A DNA stretch of 64,000 nt from Chiloscyllium plagiosum. Lineage: Eukaryota. Positions 4,231 to 60,580 of the stretch are shown here, piece after piece (position 1 is the first letter of the stretch; every line of letters begins with the position of its first letter). A program made the translations under genes and the position numbers. Where the stretch lies: positions 102,284,079 to 102,348,078 of the forward strand of contig NC_057718.1 of NCBI RefSeq assembly GCF_004010195.1, given 5' to 3'. The notes beneath the pieces are model-generated. The model had not been told where the DNA came from, ran no database searches, and saw only the letters and a program-made list of their open reading frames with translations.

Positions 4231-7200
4231 CACACCACCCCCCCCTTTAAAAAATTAACCATCAATACCAAAAGATGGCTTTGTTTTTTAAAACTCTTCA
4301 AAAACAAATTGGTTAGTACTCTAATACACACATATACACAACACTGACTATCCACATGCAAACATGTACAACCACATGCGAATTCAGGCCATGGCACACC
4401 CGCTACTGAACGCCTCTGTATCTCATTCGAGTCTTGATAATGCATTGGCAATCACGCTTTCGTGACCTGCTACATGTACAATTGTCAAATGAAAGGTTGC
4501 AACAACAAGTTCCATCTGAACAGTCTGGCATTTCCATCCTTAAATCTTTCCACAAGTGTCAATGGGTTGTGATCAGTATATAGGATTGTCCCAGATGGTA
4601 ATATAAACACTGAAATATTGTAATGCAACACCAAGCTTCAAGTCTCTTTCTCCACCGTCGAATATTTCTGTTGATGAACGTTCAACTTCCTATTCCCTTG
4701 TTATCCTCCTGCAGGAGCACTGCACCGACACCCACATCACTGGCAACAATAGCCACCTTGAAAGGCTTCGTGTAATCAGGTGTGGCTAATACTGGGGCAG
4801 TGGTTAACACAGTGTTTAGGCTGTCAATTGCCTTTTGACAGTCTGCTGTTCACTGAAACTTCTTGTCCTTTTTTAACAATTCGGTGTGTGCAGCAGCCAC
4901 ACTGCTAAAGTTCGGCCCAGGAACCGGAGTAATGCTTCCTTCGTCGACGGTGTGGGAACTTCCCCAATTACTCTCATTTTCTCATCCCGTGGGGTCATTT
5001 GTCCATGTTCAATAACATGGTCCAGGAAGGTGACTTGGGCTTTGGCAAATTCACTTTTAGCCGGGTTTATCACCAAGCCTGCCTTCCAAAGTTGATTGAA
5101 CAAGTCCGATAAATGCTGTAAATGTTCCTTTTCTGAAATGTGGCTGGAGCGCTTTTCATATCAAATGCTTTTCATACTTTGATTTGATATAGTCCATTTG
5201 GTGTTATGAAAGTCAAAATCGCCTTTGCTCTCTCTGACAGAGGTACTTGTCTGTAGCCTCTGAGCAAGTCCAACTTAGAAATGTAAGTTGCTTGTCCCAG
5301 TTTTTTTGACACAGTCCTCCAACCATGGATTTGGTTTTGCACCAGTCTTTGTAATGGTGTTGACTTTGCAATAGTCCACATATAACCGTTTGGTACCATC
5401 TGGCTTTGGCACCATGACTATGGATGATCTCCAATCACTGTAACTCACTTCAATTATGCCATCTTGGAGTATGCGCTCTTTCTCCTTCTGAAACTGTGCC
5501 AACGTTTGATGGTTATGTCTATAAGGATGTTGCTTAATCGGAACAGCATCAACTATATCTACATCATGCACAATTAGGTTAGTATTTTCCAGTTTATTTC
5601 TGCATCTCCCTCCATGTGATAGTAATCATTCTTTCAGATCATTTCGATTTTCTTGTGAAAGGTAACTCAATAATTTATCCCAATTTTTGACAACTTCCTC
5701 ATTGTCCAATTTGATTTGAGGAATGTCCAATTCAGAATCCTCTGAGCTTGGTTCTTCCTTCTGTGCTGTAAGCATTAACACCTTCTCCTCTTGCTTTCCT
5801 TTCCTATCAAAATACCTTTTGAGCATATTCACATGACACACTCAGATTTCTCCCTGTCTGGAGTTCGTATTATGTAGTTCACCTCAATTTCCTCTTGATT
5901 TGATACCATCCACTAAACCTTGTTTTAAAGGCTCACCTGTTACTGGAAGTAACCTTATCCCCAATTGCAAAATTGTGAATTTTTGAACTCTTATCCACGT
6001 CCTGCTTCATTGTGTGCTGTGATACTTTTAAATGCTGTCTAGCCAACTCTCCATCTTTATTTAATCATTCTCTAAAAGTTGACACATAATCCAAATGGGT
6101 AGTCCCTGAATTCTGACTTATCAATTTCTCCTTCATCCACTTTAACAGCCCTCTCACTTCACACCCAAATATTAATTCAAATGGACGCAATCTGGTTGAT
6201 TCATTTGGTGCACCTCTGATTGCAAAAAGCACAGACAGAACTCCCTTATCCCAATCATCTGAATAATCCTGACCATAAGCCCTCAACATGGTCTTTAGTG
6301 TTTGATGCCATCTCTCCAGTGCTCCCTGCAATTCTGGATGGTACTCAGTAGATTTGAATTGCTTTATTCCCAAGTTATCCTTGAATAGTTTGGATGTGAA
6401 GTTTGATCCTTGATCTGACTGTATCTCTATTGCTAGCCTGTATCTAGTAAAAAAAAAAGTAATTCTTATACAACCCTTTTTGCACTGATGTTGCATAATG
6501 GGATTGCATCTGGAAATCTAGTTGACACATCTATTATTGCTAATAAATACTTATTCCCACTTTTTGTTTGAGGTAGGGGACCTCCACAATCAATCAAGAC
6601 TCTTGTGCAAGGTTCCTCAAATGCTGGAATCGGTATTAAAGATGCAGGTTTATTACTGCCTGTGGTTTTCTGATTAGCTGCATTATATGACACATCTGGC
6701 AAAATTCAACTACATCCTTGTGTAATCCAGGCCAGTAAAAATGTCTTTGTATTTTAGCCTGTGTTTTCCTCACTCCTAAATGACCTCCAAGTGGTAGCTC
6801 ATGCACCACTCACAGCACCTCCTCTCTATACCTTAATGGCAAAACAATTTGATGAATCTCTGCCCCTTTCTCATCTGCTTGACTATGTGATGGTCTCCAC
6901 TTCTTCATTGAGATATCATTTGTTAAGAAATGAAACACAGGGATGCAATCACTCTCCTCTTCTGTATATGCCTTTCGATATAACTGTTTTAAGTTCTCAT
7001 CTTTCTGCTATAACTCAATAAGCATAGCAAAGCTAAAGATACTTGCATGTTTACCTGATCTGTCCGACTTACCCAATCAAAAAAAGTCTCAGATAAAGCT
7101 ATGTCAGCTTCTTTAACTGTGCCTCTTGATCTCTCCTGATTCAACTTGCGCTTCTGTGACCTTATGATCACACAATCTGGAGAAATCCCTGGATCAGCAT

Positions 7201-17660: not shown

Positions 17661-18225
17661 TATTCTGGGGTACGACTTGTTCAGTATTACGATCTTAGAA
17701 TAATGAAACAGCCCAACGAAATTCCTACATGTAACAAGATAGGTGAATGTATCAACTAATCAGTCTCTATCCTAATGGACACTTCAATCATTTATGCATC
17801 TAAAAATTATTAAACTTATCATTTCAACCATTACGCCAAACTGATTTGGCCTTCAGCCTCTTAATTATGTAGTTCATGAATACCAAATATAAATGCATTA
17901 GCATCTGAAAAATAGATAAGTACATTTATTTGAATTCTTCTGTTATATCCATTAGAAAAGAAACATTTATTTTCTGTAGGCCACAAATATAGATCTAAAG
18001 ATTCATTTAATGCTTCAGATTCATTACACTATTCATAACCAATCTTCTCTTGTATGTCTTCCATTTAACTCTAATGCCTTTGATTCTATCTGCCAATTTT
18101 TATATGTCACCAGAATTGCCCTTTAAATCCAGTCATTAGATGTAGATTAGACACGATCTTAAGAGAACGGCAAAACAGGCTCAAGAGGCTTATATGATCT
18201 ACTCTTGCTCCTATTCCTTATGATC

Positions 18226-18456
18226 CAAGTCCAGATTAGAATGTGCTGGAAAAGCACAGCAGGTCAGGCAGCATCTGAGGAGCAGGAAAATCGATGTTTT
18301 GGGCAAAAGCCCTTCATCAGGAATCCATTCCTGATGAAGGGCTTTTGCCCGAAACGTCGATTTTCCTGCTCCTCAGATGCTGCCTGACCTGCTGTGCTTT
18401 TCCAGCACCACTCTAATCTAGACTCTGGTTTCCAGCATCTGCAGTCCCCACTTTTG
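18226..18456. mobile_element. Palindromic short retroelement (Penelope-derived) carrying hammerhead motifs on both strands
   Basis: Near-perfect inverted repeat centred on ggaat-cc-attcc; TSD ccttatgatc at 18216-18225 / 18457-18466. Confidence 0.88.
18327..18362 (+). ncRNA. Minimal type-I hammerhead ribozyme motif (intact core)
   Basis: attc CTGATGA A GGGC-TTTT-GCCC GAAA CG TC gatt. All core nucleotides are present, with a palindromic ACGT at helix III; predicted cleavage after 18358. Confidence 0.7.
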
Positions 18457-18715
18457 CCTTATGATCTAACACCATATTCATGTGTGCTCTTAGTCAAATA
18501 TCATTTTGAATGTTAATAGAGCAAAACACTAAAACAGATGCAATTTTGAATCACAGAAAATTTATACGTAGGTACTGCAGGTGAATAAGGTGGCTAGTGA
18601 AATCTTGATGTTTATTACAAGAGGAATTAAATCAGTGTTTCTAAAGCTCTACTGGGTATTAGTAAGACTATACTTGGAGGATTGTGCCCTGTTTTAATCT
18701 CTTTATTTAAGACAA

Positions 18716-19056
18716 GGGGTGCACGGTGGCTCAGTGGTTGGCCCTGCTGCCTTACAGTGCCAGAGACCCTGGTTCGATTCCAGCCTCAGACGACTGTGTG
18801 GAGTTTGCACACTCTCCCGGTGTCTGTATGGGTTTCCTCCGAGTGCTCCGCTTTCCTCCCACAGTCCAAAGATGTGCAGGTTAGGTAAATTGGCCATGTT
18901 AAATTGCCCAGAGTCTACAGGGATGTGCACTTTAGGTGCATTAGTCAGGGGTAAATGGAGAGGAATGGGTCTGGGTGGGTTACTCTTTGGAGGGTCAGTG
19001 TGGACTTGTTGGGGCAAAGGGCCTGTTTTCCACACTGTATGGACTTTGTGATTCTA
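18716..19056 (+). mobile_element. tRNA-derived SINE (HE1/V-SINE-like)
   Basis: gcacggtggctcagtggtt...ggttcgattccagcctc...gggcctgttttccacactgta. Confidence 0.88.
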
Positions 19057-20830: not shown

Positions 20831-21155
20831 ACTTTAAATAATGGTCATGAGCACGTCACACCAAGATAAGATTTCACTTTTGACTTTCTCGCCATACCAC
20901 TGTTGACAACTAAAGAGCCTTGCCACGTAGAAAGAAATTGCCAGATTTACTGGGGAATTGGACAGGAAGGGACTCTGAAAGTGGTATTTTACTGGGATAT
21001 TCACCAGATACATAAAGAAAGTTGAATTTGGAAACATTTTTAAATTAATACATTTCTATCCATTGCAATGCAAAACTCAGCATTTATAGCGACTTTCCAG
21101 ATCCAAGTCCATTCAACACGAACAATGGCGTCACCTTTCCATCAGTTTTAAAACC

Positions 21156-21246
21156 TGATGAATGGCTTTTGCCCAAAACGTCAACTCTCCTGCACCTCGG
21201 ATGCTGCCTGACCTGCTGTGCTTTTCCAACATCACTCTAATTTTGA
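21156..21246 (+). mobile_element. Short hammerhead-family element
   Basis: cctgatgaatggcttttgcccaaaacgtc...; TSD catcagttttaaaacc at 21140-21155 / 21247-21262. Confidence 0.8.
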
Positions 21247-21466
21247 CATCAGTTTTAAAACCCTATTAATCTATAGGACCATCATCAGCATCAGCCTTCT
21301 CTTCAGTAGCAGCACTGTTACAAATGCACATTCAGCTGGTGACCAACAGGAATTCTGTTATTGGGGGAAATGGAAGGAGGAGTGCTAAAAGCCCCTTGTA
21401 TTGAGTGCACACTGCAGAGAACCCACAGAGGTTAGTTTCAGAGTCACCTTGGTGGTTAGGTAGTCA

Positions 21467-21582
21467 AGGAGAAAGTGAGGACTGGAGATCAGAGTTGAGA
21501 GTGTGTAGTGCAGGAAAAGCACAGTAGGTCAGGCAGCATCTGAGGAGCAAGAGGATCAGGCATAAGCTCTTCATCAGGAATG
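21467..21582 (-). mobile_element. Short hammerhead-family element
   Basis: Minus strand starts cattcctgatgaagagcttatgcc; TSD aggtagtca at 21458-21466 / 21583-21591. Confidence 0.78.
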
Positions 21583-22751: not shown

Positions 22752-25700
22752 CTGGCAGAAGAAAAACATTTGAGATTAGCAATTATTGGCACATATTAGT
22801 TCCACAACAGAGCATTCACTACATATCAAGAGTTATTACCATTGCAGTAGAGGGGAATGATGAGCTCCTATTTGACAACATTAATCCAACTTGGTCTTAA
22901 GCTTGCTTCTGTTTGCAGAGTGGAATTGTAATATTTCTTAGATAATTCTGCTCATAGCTTCAAATCTTGAAGTGTTTGTTGGATTCAGATGTATGCCTGT
23001 TTTCTATTTCTCAATATGAATTGTCAATGCTGTGTATGGAGATATGATATTAGAATAATTGAGGATTTAGATAAGACAAGTTGCTTGGCAACTGATCCTT
23101 TTTGAGTTGCATGCATATATGTTACTTTCTTAGTGGACATTAAAAAATATTTACAAAATGGGGAAACATAAATGAACCGTTCAGCCCTTTGAGCCCGTTT
23201 TGTCATTCAGTTAGGTTTTAACCACTCTGAACGTCAACTCCCTTTACCCACTATTTGATCAGAATCTTTTGATGCCCTTACGTTAAACAAAATACTGTAG
23301 ACTTTGGTCTTGAAAACAGGCAGGTATATTAATACAAAAGCAAAAGAAAAACTACAGATGTTGGAAGTCTGATGCCATGGTAAGTTTAGGAGGTCAAATT
23401 ATTGAACTTAATGTTTATGCAGAATTAAAAGATATATTCATCAATACACAGGATGTCTGAGACAACTATTAAAAACTTAAGCACATTATGGAGCTATTAG
23501 AAAAATCATGAATAAGGGCATTTGACAGATACAAGATTTTTCTCTTTGTATATAACCTCTGCCATTATTTCACCAAACTGAGTATTAAGTAAACACAAAA
23601 TTCACATTGAATGTTGTGCAGTCTACCAAACAAAGAATGTCATTTTATCCAATGTTGGTTTCGCTTTCACTTTTAACTCTATTTAATGTTTTGAGGTCCT
23701 ACTTCCACATCAAATTCCCGAAGAAGGGCTCATGCCCGAAACGTCGATTCTCCTGCTCCTTGGACGCTGCCTGACCTGCTGCACTTTTCCAGCAACACAT
23801 TTTCAGCTTCCACATCAAATGTCAAGCTAAGAATGTGGGTATACGTTAATTGGGCTCTTTAATAACAATAAGATCACCGCATACAATCAAACATACTGTT
23901 CTGTTCCATTGCCTATCTAAGCCAAGAACACCAATTTTCTGTAACAAAAACTGAACACAAATGTGAACTGATTGGAACATTGTAAGCTCTCAGCATAACA
24001 TCTCTAGACTTGTCCATTATTATTCGAATAAGATACCTTAACTATTGGCTTTTCTAATCCCTTTGTCTGAACACTGATAGTATTGGCATTTCTATTGATT
24101 AATGTCGTATGACGATTTAAATCAAAAAAGTTTCCACAGCCTTTTAGGGTGAAAAATCTCCACATTTCTAGTATCCCTTTTTTGTGATAAAGGGCTCAAA
24201 TTTCATTTGTTATTGGCTACAATTTTCAAGACTGCACACTTTTGTTCTGAATTTCCTTAGGCGAATAAAATAGCTTCTCTTCATTAAGTCTAAATCTTGA
24301 CTCCTTTTATTATTGTCATCATCTTTCAACTATGGACCAACTATTTTATGCAACCTATCCTCATAATTTAACTCTTTGAAGCAATGTCGTAATTCTAATA
24401 CTGTGTCTAAAGCTGAACGTAGTTCTTCATAAGCCAGTTTTTAAAATGTATGCCATTATGAGATGTGGATATTGCTGACAAGGCCAGCATTTATTGCCTG
24501 ACCGTAACAACACCTTTAACTGAGACCCTTGATAGGCCATTTCAGAGGCCTATTGAGTACAACCACATTGCAGTGGATCTGGAATCAGATATCCACACTA
24601 CACTGAGGACCCACAAATGAGGCAAATGACAAATTTTGATTGCACTGGTTGAAGAATGACAATCTAAGTGTGATTTTACAAAAAAACTCTTACCTTTTTG
24701 AGACCCTTTCCTCTTTGGTCTTCTGAATTCACTTTCTAAAATTATAATGTTATCAAATAAGAAAACCCAAATAACATGATTATAAATGACAAATTACAGC
24801 AATCTGAATTCTTGCACAAAATTCAACCAGTCTGAAGTAGATAACTATTTTTGCAGGTGATAAGGTGATGTCACTAGTTAACGCAGAAATCACATTCATT
24901 TATAACTGACTACAACAGTTTTTTTTTTTACAAACACATGCAAGAACTGGTACCACAATGGGTTATGCTTACTATTAATTCATCTTTAGAGCCTTGGTTT
25001 GAGCTTTCCACTGAAGAAAAACACTTCTCTCTGCTATAGGAGCAAATTATTGCAGATGCTGTAATTGGTACTGAAAACAAAGTGCTGGAGATCACAGCGG
25101 GTCAGGCAGTGTCCATGGAGAGAACACAAGCTGGAGGGGGCAGCAATGTGGGGTAAGAAGGGGAGAAATGTGGAGTGGAACTGGTTGTTCTTTCCAGTCT
25201 GACAGTTAGACACACCATTTGTTCTGCAATTCCCACATTCCGATCACTTAATCTGCCCGATCAGTACCCTCTCTCCCCGAGCACTCCACAGCTTTGCCTC
25301 CCTGCCCCCCCACCCCACAACTTGCACATAAACACTGACCCCTCCACACATCAGTTCTGATGAAGTGTCATCTAGACTCGAAACATTAGCTTGCTCTCTC
25401 TCCACAGACGCTGCTTGGCACGCTGTGATCTCCAGCATTTTTCGTTTTCATTAATCTTTGCTGGCCTTGAGCATCTACACAGGAACCACGATTATCCAGC
25501 ATTTGATTAACCGAACTTTGGATGATCCGAACAAGATCGCAAGGTCCCAATGCATGGCTAACTATGTTATCCGGTATTCGATTAACCGAGCGAAATACTC
25601 CCGCCTGTGTCCTTTCAATAATCGAGGTTCCTCTGATATGAAATGGGTTTCAGCAGTCTTGAGACAACAACTTTAACCCCGGGCACAAATTACAGCACTG

Positions 25701-48810: not shown

Positions 48811-48971
48811 AAAAGCTATTACCTTTAACATATTTATACGTTTCTTTGCTAATATTAAAACTTTTGAAGTGAGTCTTTTGAAGCTCATTCCTAAATCCAT
48901 TTCTCCAGCTCGCTCAATATCATCATTGCCTTTATTATTAGACTCCGTGTCTGACATTCAATCCGGTTAAA

Positions 48972-49313
48972 GTTAAAAATCTCACAGCACCAGGTTACAG
49001 TCCAAAAGGTTTATTTGAAAGTACAAACTTTTGGGGTGCTGCTCCTTCATTAGGTAGCTAATGGGGCAGGTATACAGGACACAAAGCTTATAAGTAAAAG
49101 ATCAAAGTGTCATACAGCTGATGCAATGTATTGGACAAACCTAGATTTGACCAATACATCACACCAGTTGTGTGAGACTTTGAGCTTTTACTTATTAATT
49201 CTTTGTCCTATGCACCTGCCCCACTAGCTACTTCGTGAAGGAAACTCGTTCGGAAAACTGGTACTTCCAAATAAACCTATTGGACCATAACCTGGTGTTG
49301 TGAGATTTTTAAC
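48972..49313. repeat. Long inverted repeat of two Penelope pseudo-LTR-type copies
   Basis: gttaaaaatctcacagcaccaggtta... versus ...taacctggtgttgtgagatttttaac; arms ~170 nt; centre caaacctagatttg at ~49136-49149. Confidence 0.85.
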
Positions 49314-50874
49314 TTTCTCCACCCCAGTCCAACACTGGCACCTCCACACCCTTAGATAAAAACCAGGGTACACTGAAGTAACTAGGAGAAAGATTTGTTG
49401 GTGTACACAAACTTACATCAATTCTTCTGGGGCAATGAAAGCAGCACCTCAGAAACAAAGTACTCCCTCGCAGTCTTTTACTTTGCCACAATCTCCAAAC
49501 TGTCACATTTCATTCTATTTCCTTTTCCAACTATTCTTGGGTAGATCTTGTTGAAACATTCAAAAGCCTGAAAGGACTTAATTAGGGTGGGCACTGAAAT
49601 GATGCTCCCTTCCCACGGGATTCTAGAACTAGGAGACACAGTTTAAAAACATTTGGTCCTTGATTAAATGTATTAATGTTTTGACTTGAAAGCCATAAAC
49701 ATTCTCAAATATCAAAAAGTATTTGTGGTAATTTTCTTTACAGCTTTCCCAATGTGCCAGCAATTTGCTGGAAAACTCAGTCTAAGCATACACAGCATGA
49801 ATTTGACATTGGCACGATATGTCCTCATCAAATCAGAGCCTTCTTAGTTAAAGCACACAAATAAAACAGGAATTTCAGCCAGGATTTTCAAGTTTTTTTC
49901 CCCAAATTTTGCTTTAGAAAGGCATATACTCGTATTTTGGATCTTTATTTTCTGGATTTGAGAAGATTCAGAGGCAATCTTGTTGAAATATATAAAATTC
50001 TTGGATGGTTTAACATATGCAATGAAAGGGCTTCCTTGGCCAGAGCACCCAGAGTCACTGACTCAGGATAAGGAGATGGTCATTTCAGACTGTCATGAGA
50101 AGTTTCTTTGCTCAGAAGGTTATGAATCTTTTGAATTATCTATCTCACAAAGTTATGGATGCTGAGTTGATCAGGATATTGAAGGCCAATTATGAGAATC
50201 AGGCAGCAACACCATCCACTTCTTCTCAGCAGCTTGCTTGAATTGCTTTTATATTCCTCCTAGTCAATGAATGTTAACACAAGACAACAGATTCTGTACC
50301 ACTCAATGTCCCTGCGCAAGTATGTTGAACATCGTAGAACAGAAACAATGGAAAAAGTAGCAGCCAGAATTTGCATCATCACATCTGGCGGACTTCCAGC
50401 TCAGATCGATCTGCTCAGCATCAATCTTTGCGATGTATGCAGCATATTGATATGCTGAACCTGTAAATCTGAATAGGTACTCCTTAAAACAAAAAGTATC
50501 CTCATGTGATAACCAACCTTAGGATTTGTAAAAATTAAACATGCCTGAAAAAAGTGTGACTTAAAATTAATAAATGATAGTGCATCCAACCTGCTTCACC
50601 CCCAATGGATGAAGGAATAAGCCCTGAACTCGTGATTTTGAAAAAAGACACAATGGCAGGCGCTTTATTTTGTTTCAAAGCATAATTTGAATGTAATATT
50701 AAAATTGCCATTCTGGACAGCTAAAAGAGGAATTATACTGAGGTTTCTACAAACAGGTCACATGCCTACACTGTCTTTTTGTGCTCCAGTAACTCTGATT
50801 AAGGAAGGACCTACAGAAGAATTTAAATCGCTCTCCACGTGAGACAGAGAGAGAGAGATCCCTTAAAGACCATA

Positions 50875-52482
50875 GAGTTGCCTTTGTGTTGAACTTCAGG
50901 AGATGGGAGAGATATTAAATTAATGTTTTGCATCAGCTTTTACTACAGAGAAAAAAATTGAGGCTGGAGAACTCAGGGACATAAATATTTATACTTTGAA
51001 AACAGTTCACATTACAGAAGAGGAAGTCCTAGAGGTCTTAGAAAACACAAAAGGTGGATAAATCTCCAGGACCTAATCAAGTGTATCCCAGGACGTTGTG
51101 AAAAGTTAAGGAGGAAATTGCGGGGCTCCTAGCAGAAAATTCATATTCATATCATCTATAACCAGAAGACTGGAGGGTGGCTAAAGTTGTGCCTTTATTT
51201 AAGAAAGGATGTAATGAGAATCCTGGGAACTACAGACCTGAGAGTCAGTAGTGAGTCAGTTGTTGTTGTTGATTCTGAAGATGGGATTTCTATGCATTTA
51301 GAGGGGCAAGGAATGATTAGGGATAGTCAGCATAGTTTTGTGCAAGGGATATTGTGTCTCACAAACTTGATTGAGTTTTTTCAGGAAGTAACCAAAACGA
51401 TTGAGGGCAGAACAGTAGATGTTGTTTACTTGGACTTTAGTAAAGCCTTTGATAAGATTTTGCATGGTAAACTAATTAGCAAAGTTAGATTGCATGGGAT
51501 TCAGGGTGAGCTTGCAAATGGATACAAAATTCGCTTTATGGTAGCAGAGGGTGGTGGTGGAAGGTTTTTTTTTGGACTGGAGGCCTGTGATGAGACATGT
51601 TCCACAGGGATTGGTACTGAGTCCACTATTGTCTGTCATTTATGTAAATGATTTGAATGAGAATATAGGAGGCATGGCTTGTTAGTTTACGGGTGACAGC
51701 AAAATTGGTGGGATAGTGGACAGTGCAGGCAGTTATCAAAAATTACAAAGAGATCATGATCAATGGAATGAGATGTCAGAGGAAGTGGTGGAGGCTGGTA
51801 CCCAAGGGGCAACTTTTTCACACAGAGGGTGGTACGTGTAAGGAATGAGCTGCCAGAGGAAGTGGTGGAGGCTGGTACAATTGCAACATTTAAAAGGCAT
51901 ATGGATGGGTATACAAATAGGAAGGGTTTGGAGGGATATGGGCCGGGATACCTGGTCAGCATGAACGGGTTGGACCAAAGGGTCTGTTTCCGTGCTGTAC
52001 ATCTTTATGACTCTAATTGGATCAAGGGGCTAAGAAGTGGGCGATAGAAGTTAACTTGGATAAATACAAGGGGTTGCATTTTGGCAAAACAAACAAGGGC
52101 AGGACTTTTACAATTAAAGGTAGACCCCTGGATGGTGTTGCAGAACAGAAATACCTAAGGGTTCAAGTTCAAATTCTTTGATTTGCAGCAGCAGTCTGAA
52201 AGCTAATGCTTCCAAATAAACCTGTTGAAGTATAACCTTTGAATCACGGTAGGCAGAGTGATTAAGAAGGCATTTTGCACACATAGCTTTCATTGCTCAG
52301 ACCTTTTGAGTATAGGAGTTGGGGTGTCATGTTGAGGTTGTACAGGACATTGGTGAGGCCTCTTCTGGAGAACTATGTGCAGTTCTGGTTGCCCTGTTTA
52401 TAGAAAGGAGATTATTAAACTGGAGACAGTACAGAAAAGATTTACCAAGGTGTCGCCAAGAATGGAGCGTCTGAGGCTGGAT
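50875..52482 (+). mobile_element. CR1 LINE RT fragment with a nested CR1 tail at ~51765-52012
   Basis: SQHSFVQGILCLTNLIEFF...VDVVYLDFSKAFDKILHGKL. Confidence 0.88.
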
Positions 52483-58074: not shown

Positions 58075-60580
58075 CATTTGGACTTGGGTGAAGGAACTGA
58101 AAGCATTGTTGCAAAGTTGGCAGATGACCCAAAGATAGGTGGCGGGATAGGTAATGCTGAGGAAGCGGAGAGATTGCAGAACATGAACAAGTTAGGAGAG
58201 TTGGCCAAAAAAGTGGCAGATGGAAACAATGTGGGCAAGTGAGAGCTTCCGCGCTTCGGTTAAAGAATAGAGGTGTACACTATTTTCTAAAAGGGAAAGG
58301 CTTCAGAAACCTGAACATAACTTAAAAACTAGGAGCAGGAGTAGGCCATCCAGCCCCTCAAGTCTGCTTTGTCACTCAATAAGATCATGACTGATCTTTT
58401 CATGGCCTCAATTCCACTCCTTTACTGTTCCAAAAATTCTCTCTATTAGCATTAAAAAGATTTACTGAGGAAGCCTCAACCACTTCACTGGGCAGAGAAT
58501 TCCACAGATTCACAACCCTCTGGGCAAAAAAGTTCCTTCTCAATTCAGTGGTGAATCTGATCCCCCTAATTTTGATGCTATGCCCTCGTGTCCTAGTTTC
58601 ACCCACCAGTGGAAACATCCTCTCTACTCCTAACTTATCTATTCCCTTCATAATTTTATATGTTTCTATAAGATTCATCCCCCCCCCCCATTCTTCTAAA
58701 TCCCAAAGACTATAATTCCAATCTACTCAGTCTCTCCTCATAAACCAACCCCCTCAACTCCAGAATCAACCTAATGAACCTCCTCTGCACCCCCTCTAGT
58801 GCCAGTATATCCTCTCAAATAAGGAGACCAAAACTGTACACAGTACTCCAGGTGTGGCCTCACCAGCACCCTATACAGCTGTAACATAACCTCTCTACTT
58901 TTAAACTCAATCCCTTTAGCAATGAAGGTCAAAATTCCATTTGCCTTCCTAATTACCTGTTGCATCTGTAGACACCCAGGTCCCACTGTACAGTATTCAA
59001 GTAATAGTCCTTTTTATTGTTATTCCGACTGAAATGGATGACTTCACATTAATTAACATTGTACTCCATCTGCCAGACCTTTGCCCACTCACAAACTATG
59101 TCCTTTTGCAAAGTTTCACAGTCCACTGCACACTTTGCTCAACCACTCATCTTAGTGTCATCCGCAAACTTTCACAAACCACACATGGTCCACAACTCCA
59201 AATCATCTATGTAAATTGTGAATAATTGTGGTCCCAACACTAATCCCTGAGGCACACCACTGGTCACTGATTGCCAATCAGAACAGCACTCATTTATTCC
59301 CACTTTTTGCTTCCTGTTGGTTAATGAATCCTCTAACCATGCTAATGGATTGCCAGTAACGCCTTGCATCTTTAACTTATAAAGCAGCCTTTTGTGTGGA
59401 ACCTTGTCAAGTGTATTTTGGAAATCTAGATGATACACCACATCTACTGGGTGCCACGGTACATTACATTTGCACTGTCTTCAGACAATTCCAAAACATT
59501 AGTTCAGCATTATTTGCCCTTCATGAATCCATGCTGCGTCTGCCCAACAGAACAATTTCCATCCAGATGCCTTGCTATTTCTTCCTTGATAATAGACTCA
59601 AGCATTTTCCCCAGTACAGAGGTTAAGCTAACTGGTTTATAATTCCCCATATTTTGTCTACCTCTTTTTTAAACAGTGGCATCACATTTGCTATTTTTCA
59701 GCTTGCTGGAACAGCCCCAGAGTCCAGAGAATTTTGGAAAATTACCACAATTGCAATTTCTCCTGCCATCTCTTTCAGCACCTTGGCATGCATTCCATTA
59801 GGGCCAGAAGACTTGTCTATCCCTAGCTCCATTAGCTTGTCCAAAACTACCTCTTTTGTGATAATGATTGGTTCCAGGTCTTCATCTACCATCATCTCTT
59901 TGTCAAGGGCATGTTATTCATGTCCTCCACTGTAAAGACAGACACATGATACCTATTCAATGCCGCAGCCATTTCCTCATAGCCCATTACTATATCTCCC
60001 TTCTCATCCTGAAGCACAGAAGAGACTTGGGAGTCCTAGTTCAGACTGTCTTAGGTTAACATGTAGGTTCAGTTGGCACTTAGAAAGGCAAATGCAACAT
60101 TCGCATTCATTTCAAGAGGACTAGAATATCACAGCAGAGATGCATTGCTGAGGCTGTACAAGACTCTGGCCAGACCACATTTGGAATATTGAGAGTAGTT
60201 TTGGGCCCTGTAAGGAAATGCTGGCATTGGAGGAGGTCCAGAGGAGATTTACAAGAATGATCCTGATACTGAATGGCTAGTCATACAAGGAGTGGTTGAA
60301 GACTCTGGAGTTAATGGAGTTTAGAAGGAATGGGGGGTAGGGAATCTCATTGAAACTTACAGAATACGGAGGGGCCTGGATAGAGTGGGCATGGAGAAGA
60401 TGTTTCCACAGTAGGAGATACTAGGATGTGAGAACACAGCTTCAGAGTGAGGAGGAATTTCTTCAGCCAGACAACGGTTAATCTGTGGAACTCATTGCCA
60501 CTGTAGGTTGTGGAGGCCACATCACTGTGTGTATTTAAGAAAACAGGTTCTTGATTAGTGAGGGGATCAAGGATTACAGG
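58075..60580 (+). mobile_element. Host CR1 LINE fragment (58075-58315 plus 60008-60580)
   Basis: The two pieces are collinear CR1 ORF2 sequence (aagttggcagatgac...ctgaa|gcacagaagagacttgggagtcc...). Confidence 0.8.
58316..60007 (-). mobile_element. CR1 LINE (RT and 3' end) nested in an opposite-strand CR1
   Basis: [54 protein letters not shown]; flanked by cctgaa at 58310-58315 / 60008-60013. Confidence 0.9.

Follow-up and report, generated by a model that had tools for sequence, protein, structure and literature searches.

Endonuclease-bearing (EN+) Penelope-like elements (PLEs) typically show an inverted pLTR, a tail of 30-40 bp on one side and a target-site duplication (TSD) (PMC3846280, PMC8557442). 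How PLEs build their tandem and inverted ends has been called undefined (PMC8557442), and self-priming on an antisense template has been proposed for their palindromes (PMC3846280). In vitro, the PLE protein of the anole cleaves both strands and extends them, begins synthesis at two internal sites flanking the tail and uses uncut RNA, and a dimer of the protein is predicted (PMC11167929). A start site within the pLTR has also been described for Drosophila Penelope (PMC8557442, PMC2377424). Opposite-strand pairs of hammerheads, 100-700 bp apart, occur in Schistosoma (PMC4209133), and in non-LTR retrozymes two or more units, each containing a full hammerhead, follow one another in tandem on the same strand (10.64898/2026.07.22.740005).

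The locus studied here lies in a 64,000-nucleotide stretch of Chiloscyllium plagiosum DNA, called the window below. It represents a dead-end integration in which the pLTR, the ribozyme-bearing end of a PLE, is present as two arms lying head to head inside a 13-bp TSD. An inverted-repeat search of the 64-kb window ranked this hairpin at the top of six inverted pairs of at least 25 nt. Its core consists of 82 nt at 18243-18324 and 18327-18408 that are 98% complementary around a spacer of 2 nt, and beyond a 1-nt gap the arms are lengthened by 18228-18243 and 18409-18424, giving a full arm of about 96 nt. Aligned with each other, the arms are identical in 96 of 102 columns. The features of the insertion, in window coordinates, are as follows.

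18216-18228, plus strand: left TSD copy, 13 bp, its last base common to the short-arm end; runs X1 and X5 read T at 18226, which removes its one mismatch with the right copy
18229-18324, minus strand: short, tail-less inverted pLTR arm, PLE family positions +1 to about +97, with a single-base deletion
18293-18320, minus strand: decayed minimal hammerhead core, with G12>A at 18300 and GUC>AUC at 18295, both CpG transitions
18325-18326, no strand: head-to-head junction CC, templated or added
18327-18458, plus strand: long pLTR arm, PLE family positions +1 to +132
18331-18358, plus strand: intact minimal type-I hammerhead core, read from the sequence, with features as in PMC4209133
18424-18458, plus strand: tail of about 35 nt, on the right arm only, from the arm alignment; similar to the tails in PMC3846280, PMC8557442 and PMC11167929
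18457-18469, plus strand: right TSD copy, its first 2 bases overlapping the tail end

The initial annotation had described near-reverse-complementary arms around a 2-nt spacer, and these were recovered at 18229-18324 and 18327-18423. The arms are real, but the element is asymmetric: the right arm continues for about 35 nt that had gone undescribed (18424-18458). A single TSD does bracket the unit, but its true length is 13 bp (18216-18228 and 18457-18469) rather than 10 bp. The two copies agree at 12 of 13 positions in the reference assembly, 10 of them in an exact run, and are perfect in two other individuals of the same species (runs X1 and X5, with T at 18226). Because there is one TSD and the layout is identical across the family, the proposal that both arms came from one insertion event is supported. 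The unit amounts to about 130 + 96 nt without an ORF between the arms, which begin at +1 and at +1 or -1, a few bases from the family 5' limit (about -3). The junction CC may be templated, as CC precedes ATTCC in a same-type copy (L051), or it may have been added.

A broken, near-complete element in which a pLTR tail is followed by pieces of an RT-bearing ORF was found at locus L204 (G000:C2:97545000-97553000, minus strand); it represents a sister subfamily of the window arms and not their exact source. The RT carries the motifs LPKIHK, GRPI and YIDD and matches RVT_1 with E=0.0005, below the Pfam cut-off; its Atlas neighbours are eukaryotic RVT_1/DUF8422 clusters (score 0.95), and a PDB sequence search with the RT piece gave no match. 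A long Thr/Pro-rich stretch lies ahead of the RT. The linker reads CHRRNCKIC, that is, CX4CxxC, and an IIY..YIG endonuclease motif is present toward the C terminus. A GIY-YIG domain with CCHH-type cysteines is recognizable in L204 by motif only (IIYCIRFSQCGLLYIGET..REH, with F at one cysteine position), and the endonuclease C-terminal E..LI..L was found in L062. A Pfam search of the endonuclease pieces returned no hit, GIY-YIG included, and both the RT and the endonuclease stay below Pfam cut-offs. Elsewhere in the family, the upstream side of copies continues into a reading frame whose end reads E..LI..LGTLQP.G.N, and on the downstream side the tail is followed by an ORF (174 exact matches). 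A CX2-5CxxC zinc-finger linker before the endonuclease defines Neptune/Nematis, a criterion that does not tell Neptune from Nematis; judged from these motifs, the parent is an endonuclease-bearing PLE of Neptune/Nematis type by the definitions in the available text of PMC8557442. The layout agrees with that of EN+ PLEs, having an inverted pLTR, a 30-40-bp tail at one end only and a TSD of variable length. The single TSD, the one tail and the linkage of the pLTR to an RT-bearing ORF in L204 support the view, already taken in the annotation, that this is a Penelope-style inverted repeat.

The family is large, with at least 66,156 matches in the genome as counted by exact matches of an arm 32-mer. 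The window itself contains four further single, decayed arms (417-539, 21154-21247, 21482-21582 and 23714-23798), and those at 21154-21247 and 21482-21582 face tail to tail. A pattern search found 290 loci that share the centre of the window hairpin with 0-6 spacer bases, the ATTCC (+1) centre being imposed by the pattern; 50 of the 290 plus the window were inspected, and TSD statistics were not drawn from these 50, for which the finder gave some chance short matches. The annotation had proposed counting copies with the same symmetry centre. A special shared centre is not supported, as junctions vary widely across the family, and ATTCC (+1) was rejected as a fixed centre or initiator, because the search pattern itself dictated it and pairs collected without that bias accumulate at -3/-2. 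Selection for junctions within 90 nt and for arms retaining position 32 gave 921 young head-to-head pairs (620 A-type, 298 B-type and 3 mixed), and 1,240 of 6,116 A-type matches, about 20%, lie in short pairs. In a layout-blind sample, 15 of 30 copies had a partner in inverted orientation upstream of them, and a single tail was read in each case. The two subfamilies differ in age, with divergences of 0.6% (A) and 1.7% (B) after 24 of 90 pairs were left out of the estimate. One pair, L067, is of kilobase scale, with a 15-bp TSD, several uncommon variants shared by its arms and an assembly gap at its centre.

Junction anatomy was read in 90 young pairs, namely the first listed 48 of the 620 A-type and 42 of the 298 B-type pairs. 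In 81 of the 90, the end of the long arm falls at 128-135; 81 pairs have one tail and none has two. The second, short arm ends at 85-100 in 66 of 81. A TSD was found in 72 of the 90 pairs and not in the other 18, and its length peaks at 14-15 bp. Nesting was counted in 72 clean pairs, of which 31 have a tail-less arm extending further 5' than its tailed partner, 21 show the reverse and 20 are about equal; the count omits 18 of the 90 pairs for having no tail by ungapped walking, a long junction insert or a short arm beyond 110. In L060, the two arms do not overlap at all. The 5' limit lies at about -3, and only 3 of 144 arms pass -5. Seven arms begin at -3 next to an untemplated base, and every one of them has an extra G there (5 tailed and 2 tail-less), compared with 14 of 45 elsewhere. 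Junction microhomology averages 1.08 nt versus 0.60 nt in simulation (p=0.0007). The partners of B arms are B-like in 22 of 24 pairs and mixed in 2 of 24, and one mixed-subfamily pair, L081, lies inside one 16-bp TSD.

The base preceding the ribozyme cut site is retained in 6,116 A-type matches, and about 130 A-type arms are estimated to begin at the cut site (7 of 30 sampled, from 561 candidates; 4 of those 7 true starts are ambiguous through microhomology). The apparent 19-fold excess of cut-site starts (561 versus 30) consists mostly of a variant with a 17-nt tandem duplication (21 of 30 sampled). This duplication is present in about 7% of the arms of the youngest subfamily, usually in both arms (L246-L273, L022, L084, L091 and L140), and starts exactly at the predicted ribozyme cut site. 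Both arms carry it in 7 of 10 carrier loci, and the other 3 are mixed. It may reflect template switching off cut RNA in a source element, or slippage between two GAT words.

The best explanation is that the pLTR stub was made, as we think likely, by reverse transcription primed from both nicks of a staggered cut. The element protein would nick both strands about 13-16 bp apart; one 3'-OH would prime at a distal site (about 130, yielding the tail) and the other at a proximal site (about 95), and both cDNAs would run toward the 5' end of a capped sense RNA left uncut by the ribozyme. This template would start about 8 nt upstream of the hammerhead core. The cDNA ends would then be joined head to head, with microhomology of 0-4 nt or a small number of extra bases at the join and with both arms usually derived from the same RNA or locus. 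The evidence includes the single TSD and tail, 3' ends that favour two positions about 35 nt from each other, the non-nested arms, the G-marked 5' limit, the junction microhomology and the in vitro behaviour of the anole PLE protein (PMC11167929); in the seven arms concerned, the extra G at -3 resembles a copied cap. Because the arms are usually not nested, double tails are absent and the G occurs at one site, two-nick priming on capped, uncut RNA is favoured over self-priming. Two points speak against it. The arms are nearly always of the same subfamily (918 matched versus 3 mixed pairs), and non-nested arms could also be obtained from a perfect palindrome trimmed at its tip during integration. 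Same-subfamily arms do not separate the models, however, as a fold-back predicts them too, and the count of A/B mixed pairs is weakened by the age difference between A and B (0.6% versus 1.7%). The window locus, being symmetric and nested, cannot discriminate by itself. Considered at the scale of the genome, we lean somewhat towards reading the short stubs as a record of symmetric twin priming by PLEs, in which a dimeric RT-endonuclease would start one cDNA per nick at the tail-bounding sites on capped, uncut RNA and the cDNA ends would prime each other.

The self-primed fold-back suggested in the annotation is possible and, in our judgement, rather unlikely. One cDNA (or antisense RNA) would fold back and be copied into the second arm, and its tip would be trimmed unevenly. 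This is the published hypothesis (PMC3846280, in its available text), and it accounts for the matching subfamilies of the arms in 918 of 921 pairs, for the slight excess of variants shared by paired over shuffled arms (1 versus 0.2; 3 versus 0.5) and for the symmetry of the window locus about its 2-nt spacer. However, in 31 of 72 pairs it is the arm lacking the tail that extends further. The older subfamily shows no greater asymmetry (median 7 versus 4 nt, p=0.64), so that any trimming would have to occur at insertion. Furthermore, spacerless or double-G junctions (e.g., L133) leave no loop, the short-arm 3' end clusters at a second fixed site, and the two arms of L081 belong to different subfamilies within a single 16-bp TSD. 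Young arms that are usually not nested, a cap-like G on both arm types and the few single-TSD pairs that join two subfamilies all fit a fold-back poorly, and priming from both nicks remains the preferred reading.

The plus-strand core (18331-18358) reads CTGATGA-A-GGGC-TTTT-GCCC-GAAA-C-GTC. It has an extra A between 9 and 10.1, a 4-bp stem II, a palindromic ACGU replacing helix III and a helix I of just 2-4 bp, and the cut is predicted after 18358. All features of a minimal type-I (PLE) hammerhead (CUGAnGA, GAAA, helix II, a UH site, palindromic 15.2-16.2 and an extra base at 9/10.1) are present on the plus strand, whereas the minus strand departs from them by G12>A and GUC>AUC. Read on the plus strand, the changes at 18300 and 18295 (GTC>ATC) are both C>T at CpG. 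The sequence therefore bears out the intact core and the CpG decay of its counterpart as first annotated. Within the window, 4 sites match the core pattern, versus 0.01 expected by chance. An Rfam scan of the window gave no match to a hammerhead family and only sub-threshold miRNA and tmRNA hits. A miRNA precursor (Rfam MIR6024) was rejected, as its 54.7 bits fall short of the gathering threshold of 72 and the hairpin shape alone drives the match. In fold predictions, the pairing probability of stem II drops from 0.999 in the arm alone to 0.000 in the full hairpin, on either strand, so that the sequestration of the ribozyme in a read-through RNA, as the annotation had it, holds as a prediction.

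That the hairpin is retained as a host RNA element, whether as a dsRNA of about 95 bp that is edited or diced or as an off-switch for the ribozyme, appears improbable. In favour of such a role, the fold of either strand is predicted at about -188 kcal/mol and contains perfectly paired stretches of 24, 4 and 52 bp, and the insertion is apparently older than the split from a related species. However, the genome contains many hundreds of like products, and the arms show ordinary CpG decay and an indel. The 61 ORFs of at least 95 aa in the window comprise just RT remnants and sub-cut-off noise, with no host coding exon among them (short exons would escape this search). Minimal PLE hammerheads are thought to depend on dimers, and monomers showed no cleavage in the available account (PMC4209133), so there would be little for the hairpin to switch off. 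As the two cores are on opposite strands, no transcript carries a hammerhead pair. The stub codes for nothing, and its lone intact hammerhead, which needs a same-strand partner and is locked in the modelled stem, is probably inert. A non-LTR retrozyme was also considered and rejected, because the cores lie on opposite strands, one of them broken, and the tandem same-strand arrangement is absent.

Two separate insertions, the second targeted into the head of the first, or an assembly artefact are very unlikely sources of the hairpin. Nicking inside the element's own pLTR is allowed by PMC11167929 (available text), but a single TSD surrounds both arms without an internal duplication, and the one-tail asymmetry is strict throughout the family. 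As for an artefact, long palindromes of the family do hit assembly gaps (6 of 30 copies in the layout-blind sample), and no contig in the records of other runs compared spans the whole hairpin or its centre. However, the arms differ in 6 of 102 columns, unlike a read chimera, and the left and right outer junctions are each crossed by contigs of the independent runs X1 and X5, from two studies of the same species. The annotation had suggested looking for an empty site in a relative. No contig in the related-species runs joins the two flanks, and the relative appears to carry the insertion: in two runs a contig begins within the tail and continues into the right flank, the flanks differing by about 3%, and a left-flank contig ceases aligning at 18225, with about 30 letters unshown. 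With the flanks nowhere joined in the manner of an empty site, the insertion, judged from these alignments, probably predates the split. Least likely of all is that a palindromic mini-element, similar to a MITE or a retrozyme, moves independently and spreads as a unit, because, despite the centre pattern common to 290 loci, spacers, arm ends and subfamilies vary between loci, centres form a continuum and the tandem same-strand hammerhead pair that retrozymes need is absent.

Other repeats were observed in the window. At 48969-49350 lies a second, older head-to-head hairpin of a different hammerhead-bearing family, with arms of about 175 nt that are 79-87% complementary without a spacer; one of its arms again carries some 33 nt that the other lacks, and no TSD was found around it. 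At 25079-25441, a third related repeat of pLTR-like character forms an inverted pair, now decayed, with 54-nt arms at 81%, and no TSD was found there either. The sequence at 18715-19040 is a high-copy repeat by read depth, in which ARAGORN found no tRNA gene; we take it to resemble a tRNA-derived SINE. RVT_1 remnants at 4876-5160, 51133-51648 and 59175-59480 are probably LINE pieces.

The window locus is an ordinary remnant of a known kind of PLE, one of many hundreds, and probably does nothing. Its value is modest and mechanistic, in that such stubs are countable junctions favouring one model of PLE integration. If twin priming is true, it would take the place of the hypothesis of antisense self-priming, account in a single step for both the one-sided tail and the inverted pLTR, and put the start of element transcription 8 nt upstream of the hammerhead core. 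Intronic read-through of many such hairpins, if it occurs, would also create a large endogenous pool of dsRNA.

In L1 twin priming, two target nicks each prime a cDNA and the cDNAs are joined at microhomology, which leaves one TSD and one inverted segment. The PLE stubs would share with L1 the two primed cDNAs, the microhomology join, the single TSD and the inversion. The L1 segments cover adjacent parts of the RNA, whereas the PLE arms usually overlap, both approaching the RNA 5' end. A twin-priming account for PLEs was not found in the literature searched, most subscription journals and Repbase/Dfam entries lying outside its coverage.

Compared with the non-LTR retrozymes (10.64898/2026.07.22.740005), the window unit is likewise non-coding, with a type-I hammerhead derived from a PLE pLTR. 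With the minimal type-I hammerheads of metazoan PLEs (PMC4209133) it shares the extra base at 9/10.1, G10.1-C11.1, the palindromic 15.2-16.2 and the short helix I; it differs in a helix II of 4 bp, a helix I of 2-4 bp and one copy inactivated at CpG sites. The EN+ PLE insertion unit (PMC3846280, PMC8557442) has the same head-to-head pLTRs, one tail, one TSD, a pLTR hammerhead and gaps at long copies, but the window stub is extremely truncated, at about 130 + 96 nt with no ORF between the arms. Unlike the self-priming in PMC3846280, the junction counts reported here favour two primings. A further parallel is PAc, a Poseidon element of the green anole (PMC11167929), in which two internal RT start sites also bound the tail, both strands are cut and extended, uncut RNA is the main template and the hammerhead lies at the pLTR/ORF boundary. 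PAc/Poseidon lacks the CX4CxxC linker, whereas the parent described here has one and is of Neptune/Nematis type (PMC8557442). The available text of PMC11167929 does not tie two-strand extension to head-to-head insertions, the arrangement in which the stubs described here are found.
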